From assembly GCA_050260475.1 (NCBI GenBank), contig JBLNCG010000061.1, positions 6,851 through 70,850 of the forward strand: a stretch of DNA of 64,000 nucleotides, in the 5' to 3' direction. Under the pieces are notes generated by a model. The model was not told where the DNA came from and ran no database searches. It saw nothing but the letters and a program-made list of their open reading frames with translations. Made by a program: the position numbers and the translations under genes. The stretch comes from Bacillota bacterium (GTDB taxonomy: Bacteria; Bacillota; UBA4882; JBLNCG01). Below are positions 4,735 to 61,905 of this stretch, in pieces (position 1 is the stretch's first letter; each line of letters begins with the position of its first letter).

Positions 4735-4859
4735 TTTTGCATCCTCCTTCCAGTGAGCGGAGCTGTATTGTATTTAGCGTGCATAAGCCATCATATGATT
4801 CGCCTTCTTGCGGATTGACGGATCCGGGCAGGTTTTCACATGGTGAAAACGGGAGAATT

Positions 4860-4960
4860 ATGACAATTTACGTCTCCACTAATAAATATCGATAGCCTAA
4901 TAGTAGCCATACACTATATTTGGCGGCAAAACTTAGTATTAAAGTAACAACGCAATTGCC
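4860..4960 (+). repeat. Copy of the palindromic intergenic repeat with a deletion in the left arm
   Basis: GACAATTTACGTCTCCACTAATAAATATCGATAGCCTAATAGTAGCCATACACTATATTTGGCGGCAAAACTTAGTATTAAAGTAACAACGCAATTGCC. It lies in the divergent promoter region between asnB and the amidase gene. Confidence 0.75.
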
Positions 4961-4998
4961 TTTTATAGGTTAAAACCCCATCATGTAAATGGTCCGCC

Positions 4999-6774: not shown

Positions 6775-6861
6775 CTCCGCAAGCGGAAATGCTTCCCGTG
6801 CATGTATGATTTTATCTTTCCTTTTGTGACATCATGACAGATTGTCCTCAAATTCATCGTT

Positions 6862-6923
6862 GCCATTAGGCCATCGATATTTAGTGGCAAGACGTAAGGT
6901 TATCATAACAACGCAAATTGCTC
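6862..6923 (-). repeat. Partial copy (one half) of the palindromic intergenic repeat
   Basis: GCCATTAGGCCATCGATATTTAGTGGCAAGACGTAAGGTTATCATAACAACGCAAATTGCTC matches the reverse-complement half of the full copies. Confidence 0.7.
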
Positions 6924-7165
6924 TTTTAGTATTCTTAAAAGAAGCTCGTTTACCTCAATTTTTGATAATTTTACCAGCCAGCGGTGCTCTGAAGTGGTCA
7001 AAGGCGTCTCCGTTTTTAAAAAAGCCGAACAGGAAGCAAGAAAAGATTTCCCTTATGCCGGGCGATTTGGGCACAATTTGGGCGGCGCCGATTGACTTTC
7101 CTTTTCATTTATGAAAAAATATAATATGTTTGCGTAAAGCCATCATGCCAAAAAAGGGGATATGC

Positions 7166-14881: not shown

Positions 14882-15069
14882 AAAACGGATAAAACGAGGC
14901 TTCCGTCATTTCATCCAAGCAAAACCGGCGATTGATTTTGCTGCATGAAAATCAAGGGGCGAAAGATAAGTTATTTTAAAAGGCGTCCGGGGTGCGGCTG
15001 GCATCAATCCTAAGCAAACAAAGAAGGTGTCGCATGAAAACTTTTTCATGGTGCCATATTTCTTATAAG

Positions 15070-15138
15070 AGGCAATTGCGTTGTTACCTTAATTCAGGGT
15101 CTTGCCACAAATGTAGTATATGGCTGCCATTAGGCTGC
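15070..15138 (-). repeat. Half copy (reverse orientation) of the palindromic intergenic repeat
   Basis: AGGCAATTGCGTTGTTACCTTAATTCAGGGTCTTGCCACAAATGTAGTATATGGCTGCCATTAGGCTGC. Confidence 0.75.
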
Positions 15139-30277: not shown

Positions 30278-30319
30278 AGCCATTTACATATTTTGAATTA
30301 AGGTAACAAGGCAATTGCC
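30278..30319 (+). repeat. Terminal fragment of the palindromic intergenic repeat
   Basis: AAGCCATTTACATATTTTGAATTAAGGTAACAAGGCAATTGCC. Confidence 0.55.
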
Positions 30320-30378
30320 TTGTATAAAAGAGCGGTAATTTTTTAGATTAGCAATGTCTGCTCCTCTAGGATTAGTCT

Positions 30379-31773: not shown

Positions 31774-31819
31774 CCGTGGTACCGTCCAATGCCATACCTT
31801 GCCACGTTCCGACACGTTC

Positions 31820-32927
31820 CTACGCAACGCCGGCTTTCCTCCATTTCAGGTATCCTTCGATGAATGCGTCCAATTCTCCGTCCATCACAGCCTCCACGTT
31901 TCCCGTTTCCACCTCCGTACGGTGGTCCTTCACCATGGTATACGGGCAGAATACATAGGAACGAATCTGGCTCCCCCAGGCGATGTCCTGGTGTTCGCCG
32001 CGCAATTCCGAAAGCTTGGTCTCCTGTTCCTGCCGTTTCCGCTCCGCGAGTTTGGCCGCAAGGAGCTTCATAGCAGTGGCGCGGTTCTGGATCTGGGATC
32101 GCTCATTCTGACAGGTAACCACGATTCCGGTAGGAAGGTGGGTGATCCTGATGGCGGATTCGGTTTTGTTCACGTGCTGCCCACCGGCCCCTCCGGAGCG
32201 GAAGGTGTCCACTTTGATCTCCGTAGAATCGATCTGCACATCCTCGTCGTCTTCCAGTTCGGGTAAAATGTCCACGGATGAAAACGAGGTGTGGCGCCGC
32301 GAATTGGCGTCGAAAGGGGAGATGCGCACCAGCCTGTGCACGCCTTTTTCCCCTTTCAAATAACCGTAAGCATTGGTTCCGGAGATTAGAACGGTGGAGC
32401 TTTTAATGCCTGCTTCCTCCCCGGGCAGGAAGTCGATCAACTCGGTTTGAAACCCGGACCGCTCCGCCCACCGCAAATACATGCGCTGCAACATTTCGGC
32501 CCAATCCTGGGATTCAGTGCCGCCCGCGCCGGCGTGGATGATCAGGTAGGCGTTGCGGCTGTCGTATTCCCCCGAAAGCAGAGTGGTAAGCTCCATCTGC
32601 TCAAGGTCTTTCCCCAAAGCGGATAAATCGGCGGCAAATTCGCTCTCCAGCTCAGCATCCCCGGCTACCAGTTCCAGGATCTCCAACAGATCCTGCTGGC
32701 GCTTTTCCAGCATGGATATTTTTTCCACCTGATTTTTTAGGCCGTTCAATTCTTTCAATAGTTTTTGAGCCTTTTGCGGATCGTTCCAGAGATCCTGCTT
32801 TTGGCTCTCCCGTTCCAGTTCGTTTATCTTCCGTATTTTTCCGGGCAGGTCAAAGATAATTCCTCATTTCATCCATCCGCTGCCCCAGTCCTTTAATCTC
32901 CCTCTTTGCCTCAGCCGTATCCAACAT
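31820..32927 (-). CDS. prfB: Peptide chain release factor 2, with programmed +1 ribosomal frameshift at CTT TGA C (shift site 32850..32855)
   Basis: RBS GGGAG then ATG 32927. The first 25 codons are MLDTAEAKREIKGLGQRMDEMRNYL, followed by in-frame TGA preceded by the SD-like GAGG, which is the classic RF2 autoregulatory site. The +1 frame continues DLPGKIRKINELERESQ... into the body carrying SPF (VRISPFDANSRRHTS) and GGQ (RSGGAGGQHVNKTES). Confidence 0.92.
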
Positions 32928-32992
32928 TGTCGTCACTCCCGTTTTTTCAATTATCACACCAGCAATCAGTAAACAGTAATAATCACTTAAGT

Positions 32993-35617
32993 TCATGCCG
33001 TCATGCCGCAGCATTTCTTATATTTCTTTCCGCTGCCGCAGGGGCAGGGGGCATTGCGGCCTACTTTTTTACCGACCTGGCGCTGTATGACCTTGGGCCC
33101 TCCGTCTTCTCCCCGGTTGATGGAGATGTTCCGGGCGCGCTGCGCCGCAAGCATTGAATCTTCTGTCTCAATTCTGACATGGAAAAGCATGCGGACCACT
33201 TCATCCTCGATATTTTCCTGCATCTCCTGAAACATCCTGGAGGCCTCGAATTTATAGGCCAGCAAAGGATCCTGCTGCCCATACGCCCGCAGTCCGATGC
33301 CCTCCCGCAGGTCGTCCATCTCCCGCAGATGAACCATCCAGTAATCATTGATCGCTTTCAACATGACCAGGCGTTCCAGATTCCGAAGTTCCCCGGGAGG
33401 GATCTCCTTCTCCCGCTCCTGGTAACATGCCCTTGCCATATGCCTTAGGCGCTCAATCAACTTCTGGCTGTTGTTCTCTTCAAGCTCCCCGGGTTTCAGC
33501 GAACCATGCTTAAGAAAAAAGGTTTCCAGTTCCGCAAGAAGCCCGGCCAAATCGCATTCCTCGGGCATGGACCGTTCCGGAACATAGCGAAGAACGTACC
33601 TTTTGACCAAATGATCGATCATGCCAAGCACCGTGTCGTGTACGTCCTCCCCCAGCAGGAGCAGCTTTCTTTGCTTATACACCGCGATGCGCTGCTGGTT
33701 CATCACATCGTCGTATTCCAGGACATGCTTGCGGATGTCGAAATTATGCATTTCCACTCTGCGCTGGGCGTGCTCGATGCGGCGGCTGATGAATTTGCTT
33801 TCAATAGTGACATCCTCTTCCCATATTTTCCCCATCATCCGGGAAATGTTCTCCCCGCCGAAAAGCCGCATCAAATCGTCTTCCAGCGACACGTAAAAAC
33901 GGGATGATCCGGGATCCCCCTGGCGCCCGGATCGCCCGCGGAGCTGATTGTCGATGCGCCGGCTTTCATGCCTCTCGGTACCCAGGATATGCAGCCCGCC
34001 CAGTTCGATTACCTTCCTTTGCTCCTCTTTGTGGTCCTGCCGGATTTTGCTCTTCAACTCATCGATCTGTCCGGGCGTAAGATCCTTTTTGCTTTGCAGG
34101 ACGCTTTTTAAGACGGCATCCGGATTGCCCCCGAGAATAATATCGGTTCCGCGCCCGGCCATGTTGGTAGCGATGGTCACCGCCCCCAGGCGCCCGGCCT
34201 GGGCCACGATTTCCGCTTCCCTTTCATGGTGCTTCGCGTTCAATACTTGATGGGGGATGCCCCGTTTTTTCAGCATCTCGCTCAACCGTTCGGATTTTTC
34301 GATGGAGATGGTACCTACCAGCACCGGCTGCTTTCTGCCATACAATTGGACGATCTCTTCCACGACCGCCTTGAATTTGGCCTCCTCCGACTTGTAGATC
34401 ATATCCGGATGGTCCACGCGGATCATGGGCAGGTAAGTGGGTATTACCACCACCGGAAGGTTGTAAATCTTTCTGAATTCCGCCTCTTCCGTTTCCGCGG
34501 TGCCCGTCATGCCCGCAAGCTTGCCGTACATGCGGAAATAGTTCTGAAACGTGATGGATGCCAGCGTCTGGCTTTCATGCTCGATGCGCACGTTCTCTTT
34601 GGCCTCGATGGCCTGATGGAGCCCGTCGCTGTACCGGCGCCCATACATGAGCCGTCCCGTAAATTCGTCCACAATAATAACTTCGCCGTCTTTAACAACA
34701 TAATCCCGATCCCGCTTCATCAGCTCTTTGGCACGCAAGGCCTGGTTTAAATGGTGTACCAGATCCACCCGGCTGTCCTCATAGATATTCTTAATCCCCA
34801 GAAGCTGCTCCACGTGATTTAAGCCTTCTTCAGTGACCACCACGGTATGGGCCTTTTCGTCCACCGTATAATCCACATCCTTGCGGATCCTCGGCACCAG
34901 GCGGGCGAATTTATAATACAGCTCGGTGGATTCCTCAGCCTGACCCGAAATAATTAGCGGCGTTCTGGCCTCATCGATGAGAATGCTGTCCACTTCGTCC
35001 ACAATGGCGAAATTCAGCTTCCTTTGCACCATCTCCTCGGCCTGAAACACCATATTGTCCCGGAGATAGTCGAATCCGAACTCGTTGTTGGTCCCATAGG
35101 TGATATCCGCGTTATATGCCGTTTTCCTCTCCTGATAATCCAGGTTGTGCAGGATGGCGCCCACGGAAAGCCCGAGAAATTTATGGATGGCGCCCATCCA
35201 TTCGCTGTCGCGCTTGGCCAGATAATCGTTGACGGTGACAATATGAACTCCCTCGCCGGTAAGGGCGTTTAAATACGATGGAAAAACCGCGGCCAAAGTT
35301 TTTCCCTCGCCGGTTTTCATTTCCGCGATTTTCCCTTCATGAAGTACTACGCCCACGATCAACTGTGTGTCAAAAGCCCTTTGCCCTATAGTCCGCCAAG
35401 CCGCTTCCCGGACCACCGCAAAGACCCTCGTCAGCAAATCGTCAAGCGATTCCCCGCGGCTGAGCCTCTCCTTGAATTCCGCGGTCTTCGCCGCAAGTTC
35501 CGCATCGGAAAGGTTTTTCATCTCAGGCTCCAGGGCGTTAATCGCCTCCACTACCGGCGCAATCCGCTTCAGTTCCTTTTCATTGGTATCCCATAAGTTT
35601 TTCAACCAATTCCACAT
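32993..35617 (-). CDS. secA: Preprotein translocase ATPase SecA
   Basis: 874 aa with DEAD-like motor motifs and the C-terminal zinc-binding tail [14 protein letters not shown]. secA-prfB synteny is conserved in Firmicutes. Confidence 0.97.
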
Positions 35618-35787
35618 CTATAGTACCTCCCGGCAATAGAACCGGCAATTAAATACGTCCGAATTTCAAGCCTTTCGAAACCGATTGATAACTTAAATCA
35701 CCGGTTATAAAAATCATTTCAACAAATTGTACCACGCAATATTATAACACTTAGTGGTTGTTTACGCAAATTCCCGATTTTGATCAA

Positions 35788-35843
35788 CACTATATTTTAG
35801 TGGCAAGACCTTGAATTGAATTAATGTAACAACGCAATTGCCC
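35788..35843 (+). repeat. Half copy of the palindromic intergenic repeat
   Basis: CACTATATTTTAGTGGCAAGACCTTGAATTGAATTAATGTAACAACGCAATTGCCC. It borders the low-GC island. Confidence 0.7.
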
Positions 35844-35917
35844 TTAATTTAATTTTAATTGATTATTAAACCCATATATGGTAAAATTTTAAATAACATA
35901 AAAAAAGGAGGGTATTT

Positions 35918-36775
35918 ATGCGTAAAACATTTCTGATATGCGTATTTTTATTGTTATTATCCAACATGATTATATCTGCTCAAGGTGCATTTATTCTGTC
36001 ATCGGCGATCCCCGGAACCTATGCTCTGACTCCTGTGGATTCCCAAAAAACCAGATGTGATATAGAAAGCGAAATGCTCCCTTTGGATCAAATAAACGTG
36101 GATATCCCCCAAAAAAATACCATCAATAAAGCTTTTTATGTCCCGATAATTCCTGGTTCTTATAATGATGTTCTCGCTGACTATAATGAATACTTCTCCG
36201 CTAAAATCAACTTGGGTGAAAAAGATTATGCCATATATACAGGGAAAAAAACGAACAAAGTAAACGAAAAGGAAATACTTACCTTTTTTTACGGCATTGA
36301 TATAAATAATAATGGAATGCTTGAAGGTAACGAATATAAAATGGATTATTTTTTATCCTACGATCCTGATAAACATGTGTATTACGTATGGCTTAATAAA
36401 AACCGGTTTAAATTTGATATTCCTTATAACATCAACGGCATGGAAGAAACAAAAACACTCAGCGTTTACATGACTTATCTTATACAAAGGGGCTGGAGTA
36501 AGCTATGGCTTGAGGTAGATACATACTTTAGCGGCAGAGTTCTTTTATCCAACAATATTGAAATAAATATCGCAATTATGGACGGTAATAACAACGGCGT
36601 TTTCAACGATAAAGAGGATCTTATCCTGGTTGATTCAAATAAAAACTCCCGATTTGAAGAACAGGAAGCCATGCAGCTTCGCAAGGAATTCAAAATCGGC
36701 AAGGGAAAATACCGCTTCGCCCTGGACGGGCCTTATCCGACGAAAATAACCGTGGAACCGGCGCCGGAAAAATAA
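35918..36775 (+). CDS. Secreted protein with two canonical EF-hand calcium-binding loops, encoded in a low-GC (~35%) island
   Basis: RBS AAGGAGGG. Signal peptide MRKTFLICVFLLLLSNMIISAQG. The loops DINNNGMLEGNE and DGNNNGVFNDKE fit the 12-residue EF-hand consensus (D-x-N-x-N-G-x-hydrophobic-x-x-x-E). Local composition differs sharply from the window. Confidence 0.6.
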   Translation: MRKTFLICVFLLLLSNMIISAQGAFILSSAIPGTYALTPVDSQKTRCDIESEMLPLDQINVDIPQKNTINKAFYVPIIPGSYNDVLADYNEYFSAKINLGEKDYAIYTGKKTNKVNEKEILTFFYGIDINNNGMLEGNEYKMDYFLSYDPDKHVYYVWLNKNRFKFDIPYNINGMEETKTLSVYMTYLIQRGWSKLWLEVDTYFSGRVLLSNNIEINIAIMDGNNNGVFNDKEDLILVDSNKNSRFEEQEAMQLRKEFKIGKGKYRFALDGPYPTKITVEPAPEK

Positions 36776-36806
36776 TTACCTGAATGAAACTTATGTAACG
36801 GAAAAC

Positions 36807-36843
36807 AGGGGCCGTCCTTTATGAGTCGACCCCCTTTTTCTTT
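36807..36843 (+). terminator. Terminator hairpin (AGGGG...CCCCT) followed by TTTTCTTT, between two convergent genes
   Basis: Imperfect stem followed by a T-run immediately after the stop of 35918..36775. Confidence 0.4.
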
Positions 36844-36848
36844 GCTGA

Positions 36849-37187
36849 TTAAAGCGCTGTCTTTCCTTCCTCTCCCGTACGGATTCGGACAACATCGTCC
36901 ACATTGGTCACAAATATTTTCCCATCTCCGATTTCACCCGTTCTGGCGTTTTCGATTATCGTTTTCTTAATAATGTCCACTTCCGCATCCTGAACGACGA
37001 CTTCCAATTTTATCTTGGATATCAAGTCCACCTTGTATTTTTCACCCCGCCACTGCTGGACAAGGCCTTTTTGTTTGCCGTGGCCTTCAATTTCGGATAT
37101 CATCAAGCCTGAATAGCCCACTTGATTAAGCGCCCGCCTGATGTCTTCCAGTTTTTCCGGCCTGATAATCGCCGTGACATTTTTCAT
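36849..37187 (-). CDS. glnK: Nitrogen regulatory protein P-II
   Basis: 112 aa of the GlnB/GlnK family (T-loop region GHGKQKG). It lies immediately downstream of amt. Confidence 0.93.
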   Translation of the reverse strand: MKNVTAIIRPEKLEDIRRALNQVGYSGLMISEIEGHGKQKGLVQQWRGEKYKVDLISKIKLEVVVQDAEVDIIKKTIIENARTGEIGDGKIFVTNVDDVVRIRTGEEGKTAL

Positions 37188-37188
37188 T

Positions 37189-38559
37189 TTATTTAGCCTC
37201 CTTCAGCACTGTATGACCGCCGGATATGGTGGCGTTAAAACCATTTGAACCCATAACCGCATGAATAGGTTTCCGGGCGGGAAATTCCGGATAGGCGGTA
37301 TTGCCGTGTTCACCGATATCAAGACCTTCGATTTCCTCCTGCAGACTGACACGGATTCCAAAAGTCAGCTTAATAATAATCCAGGCGGCTATTGATATGG
37401 CAAATACGAATACCGCCACGCCAAGTACCCCGGATAACTGCGTAAAGAGCAGTTTGAAGCCGCCCCCGAAAAGAAGGCCGTTTCCTGTTGCAGTTCCGGT
37501 AATGGAATTCTGTGCAAAGAGGCCTAACGCCAGCGTGCCGAATACCCCGTTTACCAGATGAACCGATAAAGCGCCGACGGGATCGTCTATTTTTAAACGA
37601 TCAAACATTATGACCGAAAATACTACCAAAATTCCGGCAATTGCCCCGATAATCACGGAACTTCCTACATTTACAAAGGCGCAAGACGCAGTGATGGCAA
37701 CCAAACCCGCCAGGCATCCGTTCAGGGTCATGCCCAGATCGGGCTTGCCTAAAAGCACCCAGGCTAATGCGGTAGAGCTTAAAACAGCCGCAATCGCCGC
37801 GGTATTCGTGGTCATAAGGATATGGGATATCGCTTTCGGATCGGCAGCCATAGTAGAGCCGGGGTTGAATCCGAACCATCCGAGCCAGAGTACGAAAGCG
37901 CCGATGGTAGCGATGCTCATATTATGGCCGGGGATAGGATTGATTTTGCCGTCCTTCGTATACTTGCCGAAACGCGGACCGAGCATCAATATTCCGGCCA
38001 ATGCCGCCCACCCTCCCACGGAATGGACCGCCGTGGAGCCTGCGAAATCGAACATCCCCATATTTGCCAGCCATCCGCCGCCCCAGATCCAGTGGCCGAC
38101 GACGGGGTAAATCACCACTGCCATTACGAAAGTGAACATTATAAAAGAGAGGTATTTAATCCTTTCCGCGACAGCCCCGGAAACTATAGTTGCCGCCGTT
38201 CCGCAAAAAACCAAATGAAAGAAAAATTTGGCCAAAAGCGGCACTCCCGTCCAGGATAGCGCGGAATAAACGCCCCTGTATGCCGCGCCGACTGCAGGCG
38301 AATTATCCGCTCCACTGATGAACCACAACCCTTTTAGTCCGACAAACGGATTGCCGTCTCCGAACATGAGCCCCCACCCCAACAGAAGAAATCCAAGGGA
38401 AGATATGGCAAAGACAATGAAATTCTTGGACAATATATTGACGCAATTCTTGGCGCGGGCAAAACCTGATTCCACCATGGCAAACCCCAGGTTCATGAAG
38501 AATACCAGCATCGCTGCCAATAGGACCCATAATGTGTCTAAAACCACTTTAACATCCAT
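37189..38559 (-). CDS. amt: Ammonium transporter
   Basis: 456-aa Amt/MEP family protein with multiple TM helices and conserved Amt Phe/His gate residues. It forms an operon with glnK. Confidence 0.93.
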   Translation of the reverse strand: MDVKVVLDTLWVLLAAMLVFFMNLGFAMVESGFARAKNCVNILSKNFIVFAISSLGFLLLGWGLMFGDGNPFVGLKGLWFISGADNSPAVGAAYRGVYSALSWTGVPLLAKFFFHLVFCGTAATIVSGAVAERIKYLSFIMFTFVMAVVIYPVVGHWIWGGGWLANMGMFDFAGSTAVHSVGGWAALAGILMLGPRFGKYTKDGKINPIPGHNMSIATIGAFVLWLGWFGFNPGSTMAADPKAISHILMTTNTAAIAAVLSSTALAWVLLGKPDLGMTLNGCLAGLVAITASCAFVNVGSSVIIGAIAGILVVFSVIMFDRLKIDDPVGALSVHLVNGVFGTLALGLFAQNSITGTATGNGLLFGGGFKLLFTQLSGVLGVAVFVFAISIAAWIIIKLTFGIRVSLQEEIEGLDIGEHGNTAYPEFPARKPIHAVMGSNGFNATISGGHTVLKEAK

Positions 38560-38817
38560 TGCTTTCCCTCCCGCTTTTATTATTTCATTCGTGAATATGG
38601 ACGCGTTTTAAATTGCCCGCATCACCTCCTTTATTTAATAACAGCCGGTATAGCGTCTAAAAGTACTTTCCGCCCGGCCCGGATATGTATATAAAAAAGC
38701 GCCTACGCAGACCATGCTATAGACGCCTTTGCCGGGATACACCTTCGTATCGGATAAATTTATAGAATTGTCAGACTAAGGCTTTCCTGTTTCCCCGCGG
38801 GATGTGAATGGCGTTGG

Positions 38818-38865
38818 CTTTTAAAAATTAAGAAGGCGACCTGTCTTTTCGGGACAGACGCCTTC
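38818..38865 (-). terminator. Leader terminator/attenuator in the 5' region of amt-glnK (reverse-strand hairpin GAAGGCGTCTGTCCCGAAAAGACAGGTCGCCTTC followed by TTAATTTTTAAAAG)
   Basis: A near-perfect 15-bp stem sits ~270 nt upstream of the amt start codon and is followed by a U-rich tract. This fits ANTAR-controlled antitermination by the adjacent GAF-ANTAR protein. Confidence 0.55.
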
Positions 38866-39054
38866 GCCTTCAAATACGCCTTTGTATTTATGAATTCATA
38901 ATACCAAATAAGGGTTTGGAAGTCAAGGCGGCTGCCTCGTAAAAATCCAACTTTTCATATGGTAAAAAACGCTCTAAGACAATGCTTTTCATGGACAAAT
39001 AGTTCTTTAACAGAGCACGTCTTTATGCTAATATTGTTATGTGGAGGGAAACGC

Positions 39055-40284
39055 ATGAATTTAGAAATGAAGGAACTTCAACTTCTGCATCTTTTAAATA
39101 AGACAGTGGGTTCCTCACTGGAGATAAACAAAATCCTGCAGCAAATCGTGGAAATAGTCCGCGATATCACCGGGGGGGACAGTTGCTTCATCTACCTGCT
39201 TGACCAAAAACGGAAACGTCTGGTACTGAAAGCTTCATGGAAAAAACACAGCAGGATCCTGGATCAGATATCGGTCAAATTGGGGGAAGGAATCACCGGC
39301 TGGGTCGCGCAGGCAAAAACGCCTGTATCCATTGCCTATAAAGCCTATAACGATTCCCGATTCAAGTATTTTCCCCGGCTGCCCGAGGACAAATTTGAGG
39401 CGTTCCTTTCTGTGCCGGTTATTTCCAATGATAAATTAATCGGAGTCATCAACGTTCAGCACGCCAAGCCGCATGAATACACCGAAACCGAGATCGCCCT
39501 TGCCGCCACCGCCGCCCAGTATGCCGGGGTTTCCATCATCAATGCGCGGCTTTACGAAGAGGCCCGTAAAAAGAACTCCCAACTGGAAGCGCTATTCCAG
39601 ATCAGTCAGTCACTGGTCTCCAACAAATATTTTGAGGAAATCCTCACATTTATAGCCACGACCACGGCTGAAATCGTCAAGGTCAGCGTATGCTCCATCA
39701 TGCTGATAAACGGCGATAAAAAATCCTTTCGCTTCAAAGCCATCTCCTGCCCGGATCAGGTTTATCACCGCGATATCAGCATACCCATTCAAAGCACTGT
39801 TTGCGGCCAGACCTACCGGACCAGCAGACCCGTTTACGTGGCTGATGTTCGCCGGGAATCCAAATTTGCGTTGCCGGATTTCGCGAAAAAATACAACCTT
39901 TGCTCCATGCTCTCCGTTCCGATGATGTGCAAGAATGAAATGATGGGCGTAGTGAACGTTTACACAGTCAAACCCCACGAGTTCAGCGAAGAGGAGATCA
40001 GCCTGCTGCAGGCGGTGGCCAATCATGCGGCGGCGGCTATTCACCACACCAGGCTTGCTCAGGAGATCGATAAAACCAAGAACGACCTGATGACCCATAA
40101 AAAACTGCAGCGCGCGAAAAGTATCCTGATCAACAATTATAAGATTTCGGAAGAGGAAGCGCACCGGCTGATCCTGAAAAAAAGCATGGATCTCGGCAGG
40201 CCCCTGCTGGAAATCGCAGAGGCCATCATCACAGGCGCAATAGTCCGGCCAGGCATGAACGACCTTACCGGAGACGCGGAGTGA
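39055..40284 (+). CDS. GAF-GAF-ANTAR RNA-binding antitermination regulator
   Basis: RBS GGAGGG then ATG 39055. Two GAF domains. The C-terminal ANTAR helix bundle is HKKLQRAKSILINNYKISEEEAHRLILKKSMDLGRPLLEIAEAII. It is divergent from amt-glnK. Confidence 0.8.
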   Translation: MNLEMKELQLLHLLNKTVGSSLEINKILQQIVEIVRDITGGDSCFIYLLDQKRKRLVLKASWKKHSRILDQISVKLGEGITGWVAQAKTPVSIAYKAYNDSRFKYFPRLPEDKFEAFLSVPVISNDKLIGVINVQHAKPHEYTETEIALAATAAQYAGVSIINARLYEEARKKNSQLEALFQISQSLVSNKYFEEILTFIATTTAEIVKVSVCSIMLINGDKKSFRFKAISCPDQVYHRDISIPIQSTVCGQTYRTSRPVYVADVRRESKFALPDFAKKYNLCSMLSVPMMCKNEMMGVVNVYTVKPHEFSEEEISLLQAVANHAAAAIHHTRLAQEIDKTKNDLMTHKKLQRAKSILINNYKISEEEAHRLILKKSMDLGRPLLEIAEAIITGAIVRPGMNDLTGDAE

Positions 40285-40338
40285 AAAGGGGATATAACAT
40301 TCTTACATTCGCCACAAACTTGAATAGGAGGACCTGAA

Positions 40339-41244
40339 ATGGCTGTTGAAATTAAAAGAATCGCTTATGGGGGCTGGCCCAACTGCTATTCTGTCTCGGA
40401 CGGCACAGTGGAATTGGTGGCCACCTCCGACGTAGGGCCGCGTATTATCAGGCTGGGATTTGCAAATGAGCCGAACCTTTTCGCGGAGTTACCGGAGACT
40501 CTGGGAAAAACAGGCGGCGAATCCTGGAACATTTACGGCGGTCATCGATTATGGCACAGTCCGGAGACGCGCGGTCGCACATATTACCCTGATAATTTCC
40601 CCATAGAGGTTCAAGCGTCGGCCGGCGGCATCCGCCTGAAACAGCCCGTGGAACCGAATACGGGCATTGAAAAGGAGATCATCATCACCGTTGATCCAAA
40701 AAATCACAACTGCCAAATAGAACACCATCTTACGAACCGCAATAATTGGCCGGTGACCTTCGCTCCCTGGGCCATCAGCGTGATGCGGCCGGACGGTGTC
40801 GGCATCGTGCCGCAAACGCGCAAGCCGGATGAGGAAGGCATGTTGCCAAACCGAGTCCTTTCCCTGTGGCCTTATACGGACATGAACGACACCCGCGTTA
40901 CATGGGGCAACCGCTATATTCTTTTAGCCCAGGACCGGCAAAAAAAGGACCCCTTCAAATTCGGATTGTCCGTTCCCGAAGGCTGGGCGGCATATGCCTG
41001 GGACGGATATCTTTTTATGAAAAAATTCGCTTACGATCCCGTCGCTATATATCCCGATGGGAATGTAAACTATGAGTCCTATACCAGCGACACCATTTTA
41101 GAGGTGGAAACCCTGGGTCCCTTGCAGACCCTTAATCCCGGATCTACAGCCGGGCATGTGGAAACCTGGCATTTATTTAAAAACATTGGCAAGATAGAAA
41201 CCGAAGCGGATGTAGAAAAGATAATTATCCCTTTGATTAAATAA
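40339..41244 (+). CDS. Hypothetical protein (all-beta, possibly mutarotase-like fold)
   Basis: 301-aa ORF, RBS GGAGG. No confident motif. Confidence 0.45.
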   Translation: MAVEIKRIAYGGWPNCYSVSDGTVELVATSDVGPRIIRLGFANEPNLFAELPETLGKTGGESWNIYGGHRLWHSPETRGRTYYPDNFPIEVQASAGGIRLKQPVEPNTGIEKEIIITVDPKNHNCQIEHHLTNRNNWPVTFAPWAISVMRPDGVGIVPQTRKPDEEGMLPNRVLSLWPYTDMNDTRVTWGNRYILLAQDRQKKDPFKFGLSVPEGWAAYAWDGYLFMKKFAYDPVAIYPDGNVNYESYTSDTILEVETLGPLQTLNPGSTAGHVETWHLFKNIGKIETEADVEKIIIPLIK

Positions 41245-41361
41245 AGCCCGTTATACGGTTAAATATTGATATAGCTAAACGCCCTTTCCATTCACGAGAA
41301 AGGGCGTTTAGCTATATCAGCCTCTGCTCATTGTGCTTTTTTAAGCGCCGGTATGCCGTTA

Positions 41362-41520
41362 TTATTTTATTACCTGAAACCGGATTCCGGAACGTAAGAC
41401 CCGCTCATATTCTATGGCCATCTGCAGCAAATCTTCCTTTAACGCCCGCTTGATGATAGGATTTAATTTCATATTACCGCTGCCTTCCATGGTTCTTATA
41501 ACGTTGCCGTTGTTGCTCAT
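41362..41520 (-). CDS. Small hypothetical protein (52 aa)
   Basis: A strong RBS AAGGAG lies 8 nt upstream of ATG 41520. Sequence MSNNGNVIRTMEGSGNMKLNPIIKRALKEDLLQMAIEYERVLRSGIRFQVIK. Confidence 0.4.
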   Translation of the reverse strand: MSNNGNVIRTMEGSGNMKLNPIIKRALKEDLLQMAIEYERVLRSGIRFQVIK

Positions 41521-41665
41521 GATAATTGCTCCTTGATAGATTATTAATGGATTGTCATTCCTAATATACCAAGGGGTTGTAAAATACATATTACCGGCAT
41601 GTTAAAAAATTTAAAATGATTATGGTAATTTTGTTAAAATCCACTAAGAACCGCCATTTTATTAG

Positions 41666-42955
41666 CTATTTGCTTTTTTCCCTTGGGCCGCGCAGGATTG
41701 TAATTAAAATTAAGGCAAGCAGCACGGCGGCGGCGGTTGCCGCTATGTTACAAACCGCTTGCCATGGTTGGGACGGCCTTTTTTTCGGATCCCGCAATAC
41801 ATTGCTCACATCCGCAGGGCCCAGGCCGCATAAATCCTGTTTTTCCTTCTCCAGATATGCTTTGTAAAGTTCCATGTCGTAGCGGGGTTTTTCCGCGTCC
41901 CGGTTGCCGAAATAAAGGTAATAAGGGCCCTTGCCCGCTGATTCAAAAACCATTTTATCCACATAATAATCGACCCGGATATTCCTGATGGGGAGAGGCC
42001 GGTCGTCCCCGTTCGCAATCCTTATCTTCACCGTCCTCCAGGAGATGGGATTGTATGCCAGATCGATGCTGGCATCCTCAATATGCCTCCCCTGGAACGG
42101 GATATGATACAACTCTTCACTTCTGCTGTCGAAGGAGTTGTGTTCGGCTTCCGCGTATATGGTGAACAGGCGCTGGAAATCGCCGCTGATTTCAAAATAT
42201 ATCTGCTTCAGACAGAGTCGGTTCCTGTTATCCAGAATGACAACAGTTTGTTTAACTCCGTTTTTGATCTCATACGGCAGCTTCGTACTGTACACATACC
42301 TGAACAAATCTTCCGCAACGGAGTCGTAAATCAAATTTAAATGCTTTACAATAAGGCCGTGGGTATTTGCGGGGATTTTTATACGGTAGAAATTATACCT
42401 GCAAAACGCCGGAAGATCAATCTCCTGCAGCGCCAGGTAATCCAGACGGTAAATTTCCCGGCTTCCAAGGGGCTCCCAGACAAAGCCGTCATGACTGCCA
42501 TAAAGGTCCACCCTTTTATGGAAGTTACCCCCGGACACCTCAAGGGCAACTTTGTTGCCTATAATATCCGCGCCTTCTTTCTTCGCAATCACCCGAAAAT
42601 CAAAATACTGGTCCCTGTTTTTACGAAAAGTGTTGATCCATATCGCGTTGTACCTTATCTCCCGCTGTGTCTCCCCGGTGTAACCGTTTTGAAGATAATA
42701 AGGGACGAAATCGCCATGCGCATCCACGATCCGGAGATCCGCGAGATCGGGAAGGGCTCTCTTATAAACCTCCTCGTCAAGAAAAAAGGCTTTGTATTTT
42801 TCCTTGCCCCTCAGGATGATCTCTTTGCGGCAGCCCCAGGAAGGCATCATATCCCTGGCGGCGGCTCCGGCCGCCGCCGCAATGATGCATAAAAACAACA
42901 GAATCCCACATCCATTGATACGCATTGCCACCTTCCTAGAACGATTTTCAATCAT
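41666..42955 (-). CDS. Secreted protein of unknown function with C-terminal membrane anchor
   Basis: N-terminal signal sequence ILLFLCIIAAAAGAAA, a large beta-rich ectodomain, and a C-terminal TM helix AVCNIAATAAAVLLALILITIL. Confidence 0.5.
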   Translation of the reverse strand: MIENRSRKVAMRINGCGILLFLCIIAAAAGAAARDMMPSWGCRKEIILRGKEKYKAFFLDEEVYKRALPDLADLRIVDAHGDFVPYYLQNGYTGETQREIRYNAIWINTFRKNRDQYFDFRVIAKKEGADIIGNKVALEVSGGNFHKRVDLYGSHDGFVWEPLGSREIYRLDYLALQEIDLPAFCRYNFYRIKIPANTHGLIVKHLNLIYDSVAEDLFRYVYSTKLPYEIKNGVKQTVVILDNRNRLCLKQIYFEISGDFQRLFTIYAEAEHNSFDSRSEELYHIPFQGRHIEDASIDLAYNPISWRTVKIRIANGDDRPLPIRNIRVDYYVDKMVFESAGKGPYYLYFGNRDAEKPRYDMELYKAYLEKEKQDLCGLGPADVSNVLRDPKKRPSQPWQAVCNIAATAAAVLLALILITILRGPREKSK

Positions 42956-43059
42956 GGCGGGTTTATTCCGGAAGCTTGCTTCTCACTCCCTTTTTTGGAA
43001 AGAATGGAAACTTATGAATAATTCTTCCTATATGCCTGAAATCCTTTCGGGGCGGCCGC

Positions 43060-44010
43060 ATGTCATCAACATCCAAACCGGAGCATATTATCAGTTATCA
43101 GCGATCAGTAGAGGGAGGATCCGGTGTGGATCGGAATATTCCTGAGCCAATACCTAGGATAACCAGGGCGGCCCTTAGAGAGATGAGATTCTGGAACCCG
43201 TTATGCGCCGAGCATATAGGTTTGATCAAAGACGGGTTTGAGCCGGACGCAAAAGACCGGACCGAAAAAGCGCAGGGACTTATCTCCATGTTTCAAGGCC
43301 TTGCGGCGATTCTCCAATCCGAAAAACCTGTGGCGCCGCCGGACGCTTCGGATCTGATACATAATTCCGCCGGAACAGTTGAAGCCGCTCTGGATTTTTT
43401 CCTTTCCGTACAGGAAGGGATGTCCGGCGGATGGTTCAAAACCGCCCTGCCGGATAATGCCATAGCGCATATCATCAAGGAAACCCTGTATTATCAAGAT
43501 AAATTGCATGCAGCCGACCGGGACTCCCGCTTACCTGAATCCGCTTCCGCCGGTTCCGGCACGGCCCCGCAAGTATGGACCCGTTCGAAACTTATCGCGG
43601 CGCCGCCGGAAACCTTGAGCGGGCAGGCCCTAGCCGAAATACTCTTTTGGGTGGAGATATCCGCGGAGCATGGAGATTTTTTGGCCGAAAAGTCCGGCCC
43701 GGTACTCCAGGAACGGTTTACCCGTGAAATTCTGAGTTTTGTTAATGATTTCGACGGGCTCCATGCCAGGCTGGAGCAAGGGCGGGGGCATCCGGGGGCG
43801 CTTGCGGATCTCCTGCGCTGCACCGCTGTTTTAAATCAACATTGGTTAAATTTCCTGGAGGCATTGAACGAAAGCGCCATTGGGGAGCGAATCCCCGCCG
43901 GTCGCGGGGTTCTCCGGCCGGGCCCCGCAATCCATATCCGGCATGAACAGGCATATTTTCAGGCGATTGTGGTAAAATTCATCGACAGGTTGGATAGGCG
44001 AAACATTTAA
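43060..44010 (+). CDS. Hypothetical protein with duplicated FW...AEH helical repeats (DUF2935-like)
   Basis: Two internal repeats, RFWNPLCAEHIGLIK and LFWVEISAEHGDFLAEK, resemble the duplicated motif of DUF2935 proteins of Clostridia and Bacilli. Confidence 0.4.
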   Translation: MSSTSKPEHIISYQRSVEGGSGVDRNIPEPIPRITRAALREMRFWNPLCAEHIGLIKDGFEPDAKDRTEKAQGLISMFQGLAAILQSEKPVAPPDASDLIHNSAGTVEAALDFFLSVQEGMSGGWFKTALPDNAIAHIIKETLYYQDKLHAADRDSRLPESASAGSGTAPQVWTRSKLIAAPPETLSGQALAEILFWVEISAEHGDFLAEKSGPVLQERFTREILSFVNDFDGLHARLEQGRGHPGALADLLRCTAVLNQHWLNFLEALNESAIGERIPAGRGVLRPGPAIHIRHEQAYFQAIVVKFIDRLDRRNI

Positions 44011-44129
44011 AGAGCAATTTACGTTGTTATGATAATCTTACGTCTTGCCACTAAATATCGATAGCCTGATGGTAGCCATACATTGTATTCAATGGCAAGA
44101 CCTAGCATTAGGGTAACAACGCAATTGCC
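44011..44129 (+). repeat. Full copy of the ~120-bp palindromic intergenic repeat (reference copy)
   Basis: AGAGCAATTTACGTTGTTATGATAATCTTACGTCTTGCCACTAAATATCGATAGCCTGATGGTAGCCATACATTGTATTCAATGGCAAGACCTAGCATTAGGGTAACAACGCAATTGCC. The nested inverted repeats would fold into a long hairpin. Confidence 0.85.
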
Positions 44130-44139
44130 TTTTAATAAA

Positions 44140-44183
44140 AGCAAATTGCGGGTAAAAATATAGTTGCCAACGCAAATTACTCT
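44140..44183 (+). repeat. Mini-copy consisting only of the two repeat termini
   Basis: AGCAAATTGCGGGTAA...GTTGCCAACGCAAATTACTC resembles the left and right terminal motifs joined without the core. It lies 10 bp after the full copy. Confidence 0.35.
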
Positions 44184-55024: not shown

Positions 55025-55294
55025 TAATCCGGAGTATAAAGTCTATATTTCCTGTCTTCGTCTTATTGTACACCAGTTTACCATCGGTTTCAACCGTTTT
55101 CGGTCTGGCAAATATAACAATTGTGTCTTATATTCATCGTGGGTAAAATCATACTCTGGCGCTGTAACGGACGGCGGCTACATAAATCCTGATTGAATAT
55201 AGCCGGCCCCTGGAGATGGAGATTAAGTATGGAAAGTCCTTTTTTCGAAAGAATAATTATTGTCTATATTGGATAACAAGCGGTTCTTATAATA

Positions 55295-55413
55295 GGCAAT
55301 TGCGTTGTTGCCTTTATTCAAGACCTTGCCGCCAAATATAGTGTATGGCTACCATTAGGCTATCGATATTTAGTGGCAAGACGTAAAATCATCATAACAA
55401 CGCAAATTGCTCT
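55295..55413 (-). repeat. Full copy (reverse orientation) of the palindromic intergenic repeat
   Basis: GGCAATTGCGTTGTTGCCTTTATTCAAGACCTTGCCGCCAAATATAGTGTATGGCTACCATTAGGCTATCGATATTTAGTGGCAAGACGTAAAATCATCATAACAACGCAAATTGCTCT. Confidence 0.85.
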
Positions 55414-55667
55414 ATAACAATATATTTGGGCCCAATTTTATCACTTACTTGCCGAATTGCGGTTTAATATCTGATACCTGCTTAAGAGAATTTTTTGACA
55501 TCTTGTTTGTGATATGTCCGACTTATGGTAAAATAAAGGAAAGATTTGGCTTAACGGTTATGCGGAATATATGAAAAGAATAAAATATAGATTGATACCA
55601 TTCATTTGGTTACAGGTAAAAAATTTACATAATTTAGCATCGATAAAACTTCCGGGAGGCGATTTAC

Positions 55668-57720: not shown

Positions 57721-58297
57721 CGATGATGTATTCTTCTCCCGTCACAGGGCATGTTAAAACTATCAGGCATGAAATCCACCTTTAAAATGCTCCGCTGGAG
57801 CATCGAGGAGCTTTTGTCATGCCCGGCCCTGGCCGTGCAGGCCGCACTGGCGAATATGAAAAGGCGTTCGCACGTGAAAATACGGCGCAGAATCCCGGGA
57901 GGCCGATCCCGTCGGGCTGGTGACCGGAGCGGAAAATTTTCCGGTGATATGCATCACGGCGTCATGGACCCCATTGCAAGCTGCAGCCACTCGGTAAATT
58001 TCGCGCATAAGGTTAACCGGTTCCATCCCGGCAGCGCCGAAATTTACCTGGATGAGCGAAAACACCATTCGGACTTGGCCCTAGGCCTTTTCCTCCGGAA
58101 TGGAAACGCGCCGCTCGTTTTACTCCGGTGACTCGAAGAAATTCTCCGCCACTAGATCTGCGCCTCACTCTCTTGCCTGATGAGGCCGGGTGCAAGCCGG
58201 ACCGCGCACAAAAATGTATCAAACAGGCCGGGAGGTGAGCGGCAGGATAAAGCCATCTCTTATAGAATTATGTATTACCATGATTGGAGGTTTTCAC

Positions 58298-59137
58298 TTG
58301 AAAAAACTCTGGTTGTTCACGGTATTCGTTCTGCTGATTCTTATGATCAGGCTGTCCCTATATTTTGTAAAAAACATGAACAGCCCCGCCGCCCAGGCCG
58401 GCATGGCGATGATCGCGGTCAACAATTCGCGGCTGCCCGACGCCGCGAAAATCATCGCCTATTTCAAAACAAAATGGCCTATGGATCAACAGCCCTCCCG
58501 GGTAACCGTACGAAGCAGCCAAATAACCTTTTCCTTGGGGGACAAGCTTTGCGGGATTTACTATCTTCCGGCTCCCATCCATCGACATCAACTGGCGGAA
58601 CCCTGCCGGTACGCCTGGCGTTGGCCCGCAGCCATGAAAGACATGGAGCGTCACCGGGCGCATATCACCGTGGGAGTAATGGGGGGAGAAAACGGCGATC
58701 CGGTGGCCGCGAGTATCGTTCTGACCGAACTGGTTTCGGCTGTACTGGCGAACACCGACGCCGTAGGTGTTTACTGGGGAGCAGGCCCGGCGGTAAGCTC
58801 CGCTCGATTTTTCCGGGAGAAGACCAGGGGGATGGACGGCGCCCATCTTCCCCTGGAACTTTGGATTGGTTTTCGTGCGGGGCGGACAAAAAACGGGCTG
58901 TCTTATGTGTGTACCAAAGGAATGGTATCTTACGGCAAAAAAGAGATCGAGATGCGCAGTCCCGTGGAAAAACCGAAAGCGCTTCAGCAGGCGGCGCTGG
59001 AAGCCGCCCATTGTTTTTTTACCGGCGCCCCGGGAAGCGAGGCGGATGCGATGAAAATGCTGCCCGTTCCTCATTCCCGGATATATATCGGCCCATCCCT
59101 TTACAACAAGGCGCAAAAGGTCATAGTAATCGAATAA
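58298..59137 (+). CDS. Hypothetical membrane-anchored protein
   Basis: RBS GGAGG 7 nt before TTG 58298. N-terminal TM LWLFTVFVLLILMIRLSLYF and a soluble ~250-aa domain. ATG 58280 is an alternative start. Confidence 0.5.
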   Translation: MKKLWLFTVFVLLILMIRLSLYFVKNMNSPAAQAGMAMIAVNNSRLPDAAKIIAYFKTKWPMDQQPSRVTVRSSQITFSLGDKLCGIYYLPAPIHRHQLAEPCRYAWRWPAAMKDMERHRAHITVGVMGGENGDPVAASIVLTELVSAVLANTDAVGVYWGAGPAVSSARFFREKTRGMDGAHLPLELWIGFRAGRTKNGLSYVCTKGMVSYGKKEIEMRSPVEKPKALQQAALEAAHCFFTGAPGSEADAMKMLPVPHSRIYIGPSLYNKAQKVIVIE

Positions 59138-59182
59138 AATGAGTGATGCATCTTTATTACGGCATGACAGGAGTGAGAGGAA

Positions 59183-61434: not shown

Positions 61435-61539
61435 AGGGGAACACAATAAGGCTTCGAAGGCTCTGGGTTACCCTCTCTTCCGAAAAAGAGAGGGCAGGGG
61501 TGAGTTTCTCACAACGCTTTAACTGTCGGCGATAAACTT

Positions 61540-61657
61540 GAGCAATTTGTGTTGTAACGATATTTTTACGTCTTGCCACTGAATATCGATAGCCTAATGA
61601 TAACCATACACTATATTTAATGGCAAGACCTTGAATGAAGGTAACAACGCAATTGGC
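61540..61657 (+). repeat. Full copy of the palindromic intergenic repeat
   Basis: GAGCAATTTGTGTTGTAACGATATTTTTACGTCTTGCCACTGAATATCGATAGCCTAATGATAACCATACACTATATTTAATGGCAAGACCTTGAATGAAGGTAACAACGCAATTGGC. Confidence 0.85.
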
Positions 61658-61905
61658 TTAACTTAAAACAGGGAGGTCAGGCATTGCGCAATATTCTAAA
61701 AAAGTCGGGATGCGCCATGATATCTTTATCTCCTGGTTTCCCCTTTTACTGCGGAACCCGGAATTCGGAAAACACCGTATTACGGCATCTGGATCCATGG
61801 AACCGATCTCAAGACCAAGGAAAACGCCGATAAGACACCGGTATGATGTGTTTATAAGAAACTGCATAAAGAATCCGGGATAGTAAATGCTAATAATACT
61901 TATAC

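Follow-up and report, generated by a model that had tools for sequence, protein, structure and literature searches.

Calcium-binding loops of the Dx[DN]xDG type, which bind the ion in the same way as EF-hands, are documented in about 16 structural contexts. Strand-loop-strand arrangements and the integrin-like 'calcium blade' are among these, and most are extracellular (Rigden et al. 2011, PMC3123361). The canonical EF-hand, captured by PROSITE PS00018 and by Pfam PF00036 and PF13499, also occurs in exported bacterial proteins, for example EfhP of Pseudomonas aeruginosa (PMC9132961). Here we analysed a 64,000-nt stretch (the window) of a metagenome-assembled genome (MAG) of a Bacillota bacterium, in which a single gene of low guanine-plus-cytosine (GC) content encodes a protein with loops of this kind. 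Low-GC variable surface loci are exchanged through conserved flanks, and Daubin and Ochman are said to have described, in 2004, AT-rich ORFan or single-gene genomic islets in bacterial genomes. We conclude with good confidence that the product of the gene in the window is a Sec-exported all-beta protein with three predicted calcium-binding Dx[DN]x[DN]G loops in a strand-loop-strand setting, and that it belongs to a small Bacillota family as one of three deeply diverged paralogs.

The low-GC gene is a single open reading frame (ORF) of 285 codons, with the following features.

35918-36775, forward strand: coding sequence of 285 amino acids (aa), NCBI MGE5559196.1, locus tag ACM3WV_11420, here P0001; GC 0.368, GC at third codon positions (GC3) 0.395
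35907-35911, forward strand: ribosome-binding site GGAGG, 6 nt before the ATG, read from the sequence
35918-35983, forward strand: signal peptide, residues 1-22, with MRK, a hydrophobic core and SAQ before G; modelled as a confident helix with a predicted local distance difference test (pLDDT) score of 86-92 for residues 1-20
36299-36334, forward strand: loop 1, DINNNGMLEGNE, residues 128-139; D128 invariant in the family
36581-36616, forward strand: loop 2, DGNNNGVFNDKE, residues 222-233; D222, N226 and G227 invariant in alignment A2
36632-36667, forward strand: loop 3, DSNKNSRFEEQE, residues 239-250; degenerate, with S at the G position, where paralog P0003 has the textbook DTDGDGMLDDYE

With its ribosome-binding site, its signal peptide and homologs conserved along the full length, the ORF is a genuine gene. 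The N-terminus, MRKTFLICVFLLLLSNMIISAQ with G as the next residue, shows the n-, h- and c-regions typical of Sec signal peptides, in agreement with the first-pass annotation of this DNA. Cleavage would take place after SAQ22, and the mature protein would fold outside the membrane, where Ca2+ at the loops may steady the fold. Two distant family members carry a lipobox (LIMGC) in place of such an N-terminus.

The same annotation had called the product a double EF-hand protein with two textbook EF-hand loops and no other recognisable domain. Both loops exist, and loop 1 together with Y140 (DINNNGMLEGNEY, residues 128-140) matches PS00018 exactly, but it is the only loop to do so: loop 2 misses the pattern at positions 8 (F) and 13 (D), and the third loop had been overlooked. 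Loose loop matches numbered 0.045 per sequence shuffle on average, and three were reached in 0 of 20,000 shuffles. Their cores read DINNNG, DGNNNG and DSNKNS here and DVNQDG, DANGDG, DTDGDG and DGNDNG in homologs, in which the residues corresponding to D128, D222, N226, G227 and D239 vary little or not at all. The hallmarks of Dx[DN]xDG loops, that is, an acidic or amide side chain at each of positions 1, 3 and 5 and glycine at position 6, conserved in homologs, are thus present.

The EF-hand assignment itself fared less well. Pfam and NCBIfam gave no EF-hand match to the protein even at E = 10, the only match being DUF7151 at E = 0.18. An AlphaFold run with a 20-sequence multiple sequence alignment of the family yielded a model with a mean pLDDT of 65.7 and a predicted template modelling score of 0.49, with residues 201-285 at 73-84; a single-sequence model was set aside (pLDDT 34). 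The alignment-based model is all-beta after the signal helix, which is its only long helix. Loop 1 lies between strands 118-128 and 145-149, the modelled loop spanning 129-144, and loop 2 (222-234) lies between strands 215-221 and 235-239, with pLDDT 55-84 around the loop-flanking strands. The entering and exiting helices that flank an EF-hand loop are absent from the model. EF-hands usually come in pairs spaced by about 36 residues; loops 2 and 3 are separated by 17 residues that include a strand, which leaves no room for such a pair. Neither an FG-GAP/VCBS profile match nor a propeller fold was found. As modelled, the protein would have one central loop and two more in tandem within the conserved domain of about 85 residues at the C-terminus, and it should rather be called a predicted beta protein with EF-hand-like Dx[DN]xDG loops than a double EF-hand protein.

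These results bear directly on one alternative, namely that the locus is a discrete acquired island, bounded by a repeat copy and encoding a canonical helix-loop-helix double EF-hand protein. The exact PS00018 match of loop 1 and sub-threshold EF-hand matches in two homologs (E = 0.016 and 0.047) are in its favour, but with no EF-hand model reaching threshold, an all-beta model and the close spacing of loops 2 and 3, we regard it as very unlikely; the island half of this alternative is taken up with the repeat below.

A resemblance of another kind was seen within the family. Profile positions 75-128 of alignment A2 are weakly similar to a motif of the pepsin N-lobe (YYGE.xLG....F.VIFDTGS.NLWV). 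In a subfamily of 263 aa, the segment YYGE.KLG...VD.EG..LWVD matched plasmepsin among PDB sequences at E = 0.08, and one member matched TAXi_N at E = 0.006. We rejected the pepsin N-lobe likeness of the 263-aa subfamily, in which the catalytic DTG is not conserved (DLEG), while the window protein lacks the Asp; the pepsin-like resemblance is probably due to chance.

Few relatives of the protein are on record. A word-indexed search of 5.8 billion clustered proteins returned only MGE5559196.1 itself, from the 'Bacillota bacterium' MAG. An exhaustive phmmer search of 1.84 billion representatives found six real, distant homologs (P0002, P0003, P0004, P0005, P0008 and P0009), with E-values of 1e-13 for P0002 and 8e-11 for P0003; three further matches, to large surface proteins, were rejected as spurious. 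A profile search brought in, among the matches listed, about 18 further proteins with lengths of 251-322 aa; each is 'hypothetical' and lacks a Pfam domain, and each comes from uncultured Bacillota or Firmicutes MAGs and metagenomes. Profile searches of the 5.8-billion set with alignments A1 and A3 gave no closer relatives of the three paralogs among the matches listed. As sampled by these searches, the family is very small and without a name, and it is found only in uncultured Bacillota. Conservation is seen in loop 1, in two strands, T-[WY]-[FL]-x-G and the C-terminal P-x-K-[IL], and in a block, IAIxDGNxNGxFND..DLxxVDxDxDxxF..E, that includes loops 2 and 3. The least conserved parts of the protein are its low-GC parts, and family members in other genomes have a GC content close to that of the host.

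The two best homologs overall in the phmmer search are paralogs in the same MAG, placed on other contigs by exact look-up: P0002 (ACM3WV_10085) and P0003 (ACM3WV_03505). P0001, P0002 and P0003 are reciprocal best hits, and the paralog contigs from the Logan assembly have 51-52% GC and end in the repeat family that also occurs in the window. P0002 is native in composition (GC 0.504, GC3 0.60), and its N-terminal part is just as divergent. P0003 (contig L169, 3230-4303) is a second one-gene low-GC islet, with GC 0.322 and GC3 0.307 among neighbours whose GC3 is 0.57-0.74; it starts 1 nt past the galT stop codon, and its ribosome-binding site lies within galT. P0001 and P0003 are each other's best match in the N-terminal and C-terminal parts alike, and they are about 32% identical.

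The composition of P0001 is strongly anomalous. The stretch 35860-36790 has 35.8% GC and the ORF 36.8%, against 51.1% for the whole window and 52.4% for its genes; the first-pass annotation had placed the background too high, at 57%. The lowest GC of any 900-nt segment in the 64 kb falls here, 0.329 at 35701, and compares with a mean of 0.510 (standard deviation, sd, 0.039). Of the 47 ORFs that reach 150 codons, P0001 ranks lowest both in GC (0.368 vs 0.524 +/- 0.034) and in GC3 (0.395 vs 0.617 +/- 0.055). GC at the first and second codon positions (GC1 and GC2) is also low, which makes the anomaly one of all three codon positions. Given its own amino-acid content and the codon usage of the window, a GC3 of 0.598 would be expected and 0.394 was observed, that is, 0.20 or about 4.6 sd under expectation, whereas the deviation of the other window genes is -0.005 +/- 0.043 with a minimum of -0.094. 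The FYMINK value of the protein is 0.416 vs 0.271 +/- 0.034. The AT shift at all codon positions, together with the amino-acid content, indicates long residence in an AT-rich background.

The anomaly claimed earlier is therefore real, but its borders are not those of the stretch 35860-36790: the tract starts at the start of secA and stops near codon 250, before the stop codon of the ORF. Three features define it.

32993-35617, reverse strand: secA, 874 aa, divergent from the ORF; native composition, GC3 0.675; left boundary of the low-GC tract
35618-35917, between the genes: divergent secA/ORF spacer, 31% GC, the lowest of 29 window spacers
36668-36775, forward strand: 3' end of the coding sequence, native-like with GC3 0.66, vs 0.36 for codons 1-250

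The mosaic is shared by the low-GC paralog. In P0001, GC3 changes from 0.36 to 0.66 at codon 250, a contrast reached by 87-102 of 5000 permutations, and in P0003 it changes from 0.22 to 0.56 at codon 262, a contrast reached by 0 of 5000. The GC3 of both 5' parts lies below the intergenic mean GC of 0.434. P0001 and P0002 are about 0.5 identical in nucleotides throughout, and we rejected gene conversion from P0002 as the source of the GC-richer 3' end on that ground.

We tentatively favour, at somewhat less than even confidence, a foreign low-GC allele that replaced most of a resident paralog and was anchored in the conserved 3' domain. The donor of the first ~250 codons and of the upstream spacer would be an unsampled lower-GC relative carrying the same family. 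Recombination would have involved one crossover in the conserved 3' domain and an illegitimate join at the other side, leaving the native-like 3' end behind, and the sister paralog ACM3WV_03505 may have been changed by the same process. Such a pair of joins would explain both the native-like 3' ends and the missing hallmarks of an island. It is unlikely that one old acquisition was later duplicated, because P0001 and P0003 are only about 32% identical and their synonymous sites would have equilibrated. Speaking for import are the AT shift of all codon positions and of the amino-acid content, P0002, equally divergent and fully native, the members elsewhere that track the GC of their hosts, and 5' GC3 values under the intergenic mean. 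Protein type and allele replacement taken together, the whole explanation is about evenly poised between holding and failing.

A serious rival, although we consider it rather unlikely, is that P0001 is a native, lineage-specific paralog that turned AT-rich in place after duplication of the family. The fast-evolving 5' three-quarters of two copies would have escaped the force that holds GC3 near 0.62, the candidates being codon selection in expressed genes and GC-biased gene conversion with conspecifics, and would have drifted to an AT-rich mutational equilibrium, while the conserved 3' domain would go on undergoing recombination or conversion and so stay native-like. Drift in place fits well with the reciprocal best hits among in-genome paralogs, with the same profile in two of the three paralogs at unrelated loci, with the embedding of P0003 in an operon and its ribosome-binding site inside galT, and with the low conservation of the low-GC parts of the protein; nor was any donor, mobility signature or phage or plasmid link found. 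However, the GC3 of 0.22-0.36 lies under even the intergenic mean, P0002 is fully native in GC though its N-terminal part is equally divergent, members in other genomes stay near host GC, and the ~0.5 identity throughout gives no nucleotide sign of conversion between paralogs.

Several observations weigh against our favoured explanation as a whole. No donor or closer homolog was found in the 1.84 billion representatives, nor among the matches listed from the 5.8 billion; the nearest relatives are in the same genome, as native paralogs would look. With low-GC sisters only ~32% identical, a single old acquisition should have ameliorated by now, and one would have to assume that a rare family was transferred twice; the junction of P0003 with galT is very tidy for foreign DNA. 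The change point in P0001 is based on 35 codons, and the mean synonymous-codon log-probability of the ORF is no outlier (-1.115 vs -1.102 +/- 0.058), a measure that does not flag the gene because codon bias is weak in the host genome. On the protein side, calcium binding at the loops is predicted, and no fold match was found for the model, which is of medium confidence only.

The annotation had also read the context as a sign of horizontal acquisition and had noted a repeat copy at the border. The partial repeat copy beside the low-GC stretch is real; it spans positions 79-134 of a model of about 145, flanks the ORF on one side only and lies 70 nt upstream of the start codon. It belongs to a dispersed intergenic repeat of about 140 nt consisting of two inverted modules (GGCAAGAC...GTAACAACGCAATTGCC), which had no match in Rfam and looks like a REP/MITE-like element (repetitive extragenic palindrome or miniature inverted-repeat transposable element) of an uncultured Bacillota lineage. 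With a profile made from the four full-length copies, 10 loci were detected across the window, a density of about one per 6 kb.

2354-2449: repeat locus
2746-2867: repeat locus
4835-4976: repeat locus
6843-6928: repeat locus
15058-15136: repeat locus
30290-30329: repeat locus
35787-35848, forward strand: the partial copy beside the ORF
44007-44146: repeat locus
55281-55420: repeat locus
61534-61676: repeat locus

The repeat is present in 9 of the 17 window spacers of at least 200 nt, and it is so common that short-read contigs of the organism break or end in it. Because it is one-sided and so frequent, it says nothing about acquisition, and we rejected it as an island border. Around the locus, no tRNA was found by scanning, no direct repeats flank the tract, no mobility genes (integrase, transposase) occur within ~10 kb, and no phage or plasmid homologs were found with PHROGs or with tblastn against phages and plasmids. 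Of the marks of an island, deviation from the host composition is present; a mobility signature and closest homologs in another lineage are not. For the island bounded by a repeat, the strong compositional anomaly and the nearby copy can be cited, but the copy is one-sided and commonplace, the hallmarks of integration are missing, and the low-GC tract ends within the gene. In the explanation that we favour, the low-GC stretch would not be an island of a mobile element, and the repeat next to it would be incidental. Horizontal acquisition may still account for the gene, in the form of an allele import into a paralog family.

Comparison with relatives was constrained by the position of the organism. 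The closest SecA among 185,579 species representatives of GTDB r232, and likewise in JGI metagenomes, shows 64% identity. In the best 80 GTDB secA loci, neither glnK nor amtB nor a family member occurs up to 10 kb away from secA. The linkage of secA with prfB is conserved in distant relatives (at most 64% SecA identity), whereas the upstream side of secA is not. The exact 112-aa GlnK was found only in run SRR24035587, and the family proteins likewise only in that run. On these comparisons the organism is phylogenetically isolated.

That the organism is known from one sample lends some room to an artefact, whether a MAG contig that is chimeric or an ORF that is spurious and lies in non-coding, AT-rich DNA. 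However, positions 31813-44051 of the window are matched at 100% by an independent Logan assembly of SRR24035587, and since the two assemblies agree over 12.2 kb across both junctions, the junctions are not an artefact of one assembler. The homologs share motifs along the full length, and a ribosome-binding site and a signal peptide are present, which leaves this explanation scarcely credible.

A hint of function comes from the best-sampled subfamily. In all five distinct loci, its gene of 261-263 aa is followed immediately, and in the same orientation, by two M16 peptidase genes, with a gap of -4 to 77 nt.

L083, 6948-10413: subfamily gene and M16 genes
L085, 8001-11564: subfamily gene and M16 genes
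L171, 5001-6084: subfamily gene and M16 genes
L172, 5001-8437: subfamily gene and M16 genes
L173, 4046-7581: subfamily gene and M16 genes

The first M16 gene of the pair encodes a signal-peptide-like N-terminus (read in three loci). From this operon link it is plausible that the family works with an exported pair of M16 proteases, as their accessory or binding module, and it may thus act in extracytoplasmic proteolysis. The window and both contigs that carry the other paralogs contain no M16 peptidase gene; P0001 and both of its paralogs lack the M16 context, and the window copy stands alone. Upstream of the subfamily/M16 loci there is often a divergent gene of 520-583 aa without a Pfam match. 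One could go further and see in the three paralogs a lineage-specific cassette system for an exported beta protein stabilised by calcium, in which AT-rich hypervariable 5' segments are swapped by one-sided homologous recombination at the conserved C-terminal calcium-loop domain and the ancestral role of the family was that of partner of the exported M16 pair; we consider this improbable.

The remaining features around the gene are as follows.

35859-35887, forward strand: promoter-like site TTGATT-17-TAAAAT with an upstream TG, a consensus match only, of a kind not enriched over shuffled sequence
36795-36845, between the genes: hairpin with an A-run, a GC stem and a U-run, in the 73-nt spacer between the convergent ORF and glnK
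36849-38559, reverse strand: glnK (36849-37187) and amtB (37189-38559), of native composition; right-hand context

The hairpin has a folding energy of -18.8 kcal/mol on the minus strand (z = -2.5). It was not called by a simple terminator scan, and it is likely a shared bidirectional terminator; with glnK on the minus strand, the convergent arrangement noted in the first pass is confirmed. Adjoining amtB-glnK and divergent from them, a GAF-GAF-ANTAR protein is encoded at 38959-40284 (forward strand), which is likely an RNA-binding antiterminator-type nitrogen regulator. Elsewhere in the window, a long ORF at 58180-59142 (forward strand) shows an inverted codon-position pattern (GC2 0.567, GC3 0.449) and is probably not the true reading frame there. 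Rfam and tRNA scans of the window returned nothing.

The novelty goes no further than a family without a name and a compositional mosaic of an unusual kind, and no major view is changed by it. If our description of the protein is true, an exported bacterial family has been lacking a name, a Pfam model and a PDB fold match, and its EF-hand-type loops in a beta framework would add one more convergent context for Dx[DN]xDG. The conserved operon link of a subfamily to secreted M16 peptidases deserves notice in that extracytoplasmic M16 partners in Bacillota are poorly known. The locus also cautions that low GC and ORFan status by themselves do not mean a mobile island, and given sequenced relatives it could become a small test case for allele import versus AT drift in situ.

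Set beside the AT-rich ORFan islets, the gene differs in having in-genome paralogs, one of them of native GC, a border inside the gene and no mobility signature; it is similar in being a single AT-rich gene with almost no database relatives, an exported product and sharp borders. The likeness to GEVED (PF20009) is weak: 9 of 20 family members match it over the tandem C-terminal loops, but all matches are sub-threshold (best E = 0.008) and the window protein itself has none. With canonical EF-hand proteins such as EfhP, the window protein shares export and, in loop 1, a 12-residue loop with D1, N3, N5, G6, a hydrophobic residue at 8 and E12. Unlike them, it has no match to an EF-hand hidden Markov model, a predicted all-beta structure with strand-loop-strand sites, and three loops of which loop 2 is off-pattern. 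There is also a parallel with the non-EF-hand Dx[DN]xDG loops, including the FG-GAP calcium blade (PMC3123361), in which the motif likewise lies between beta strands of extracytoplasmic proteins and likely has a structural role, and the spacing of loop 2, DxNxNGxxN/D, resembles the DxDxDGxxD of the calcium blade.

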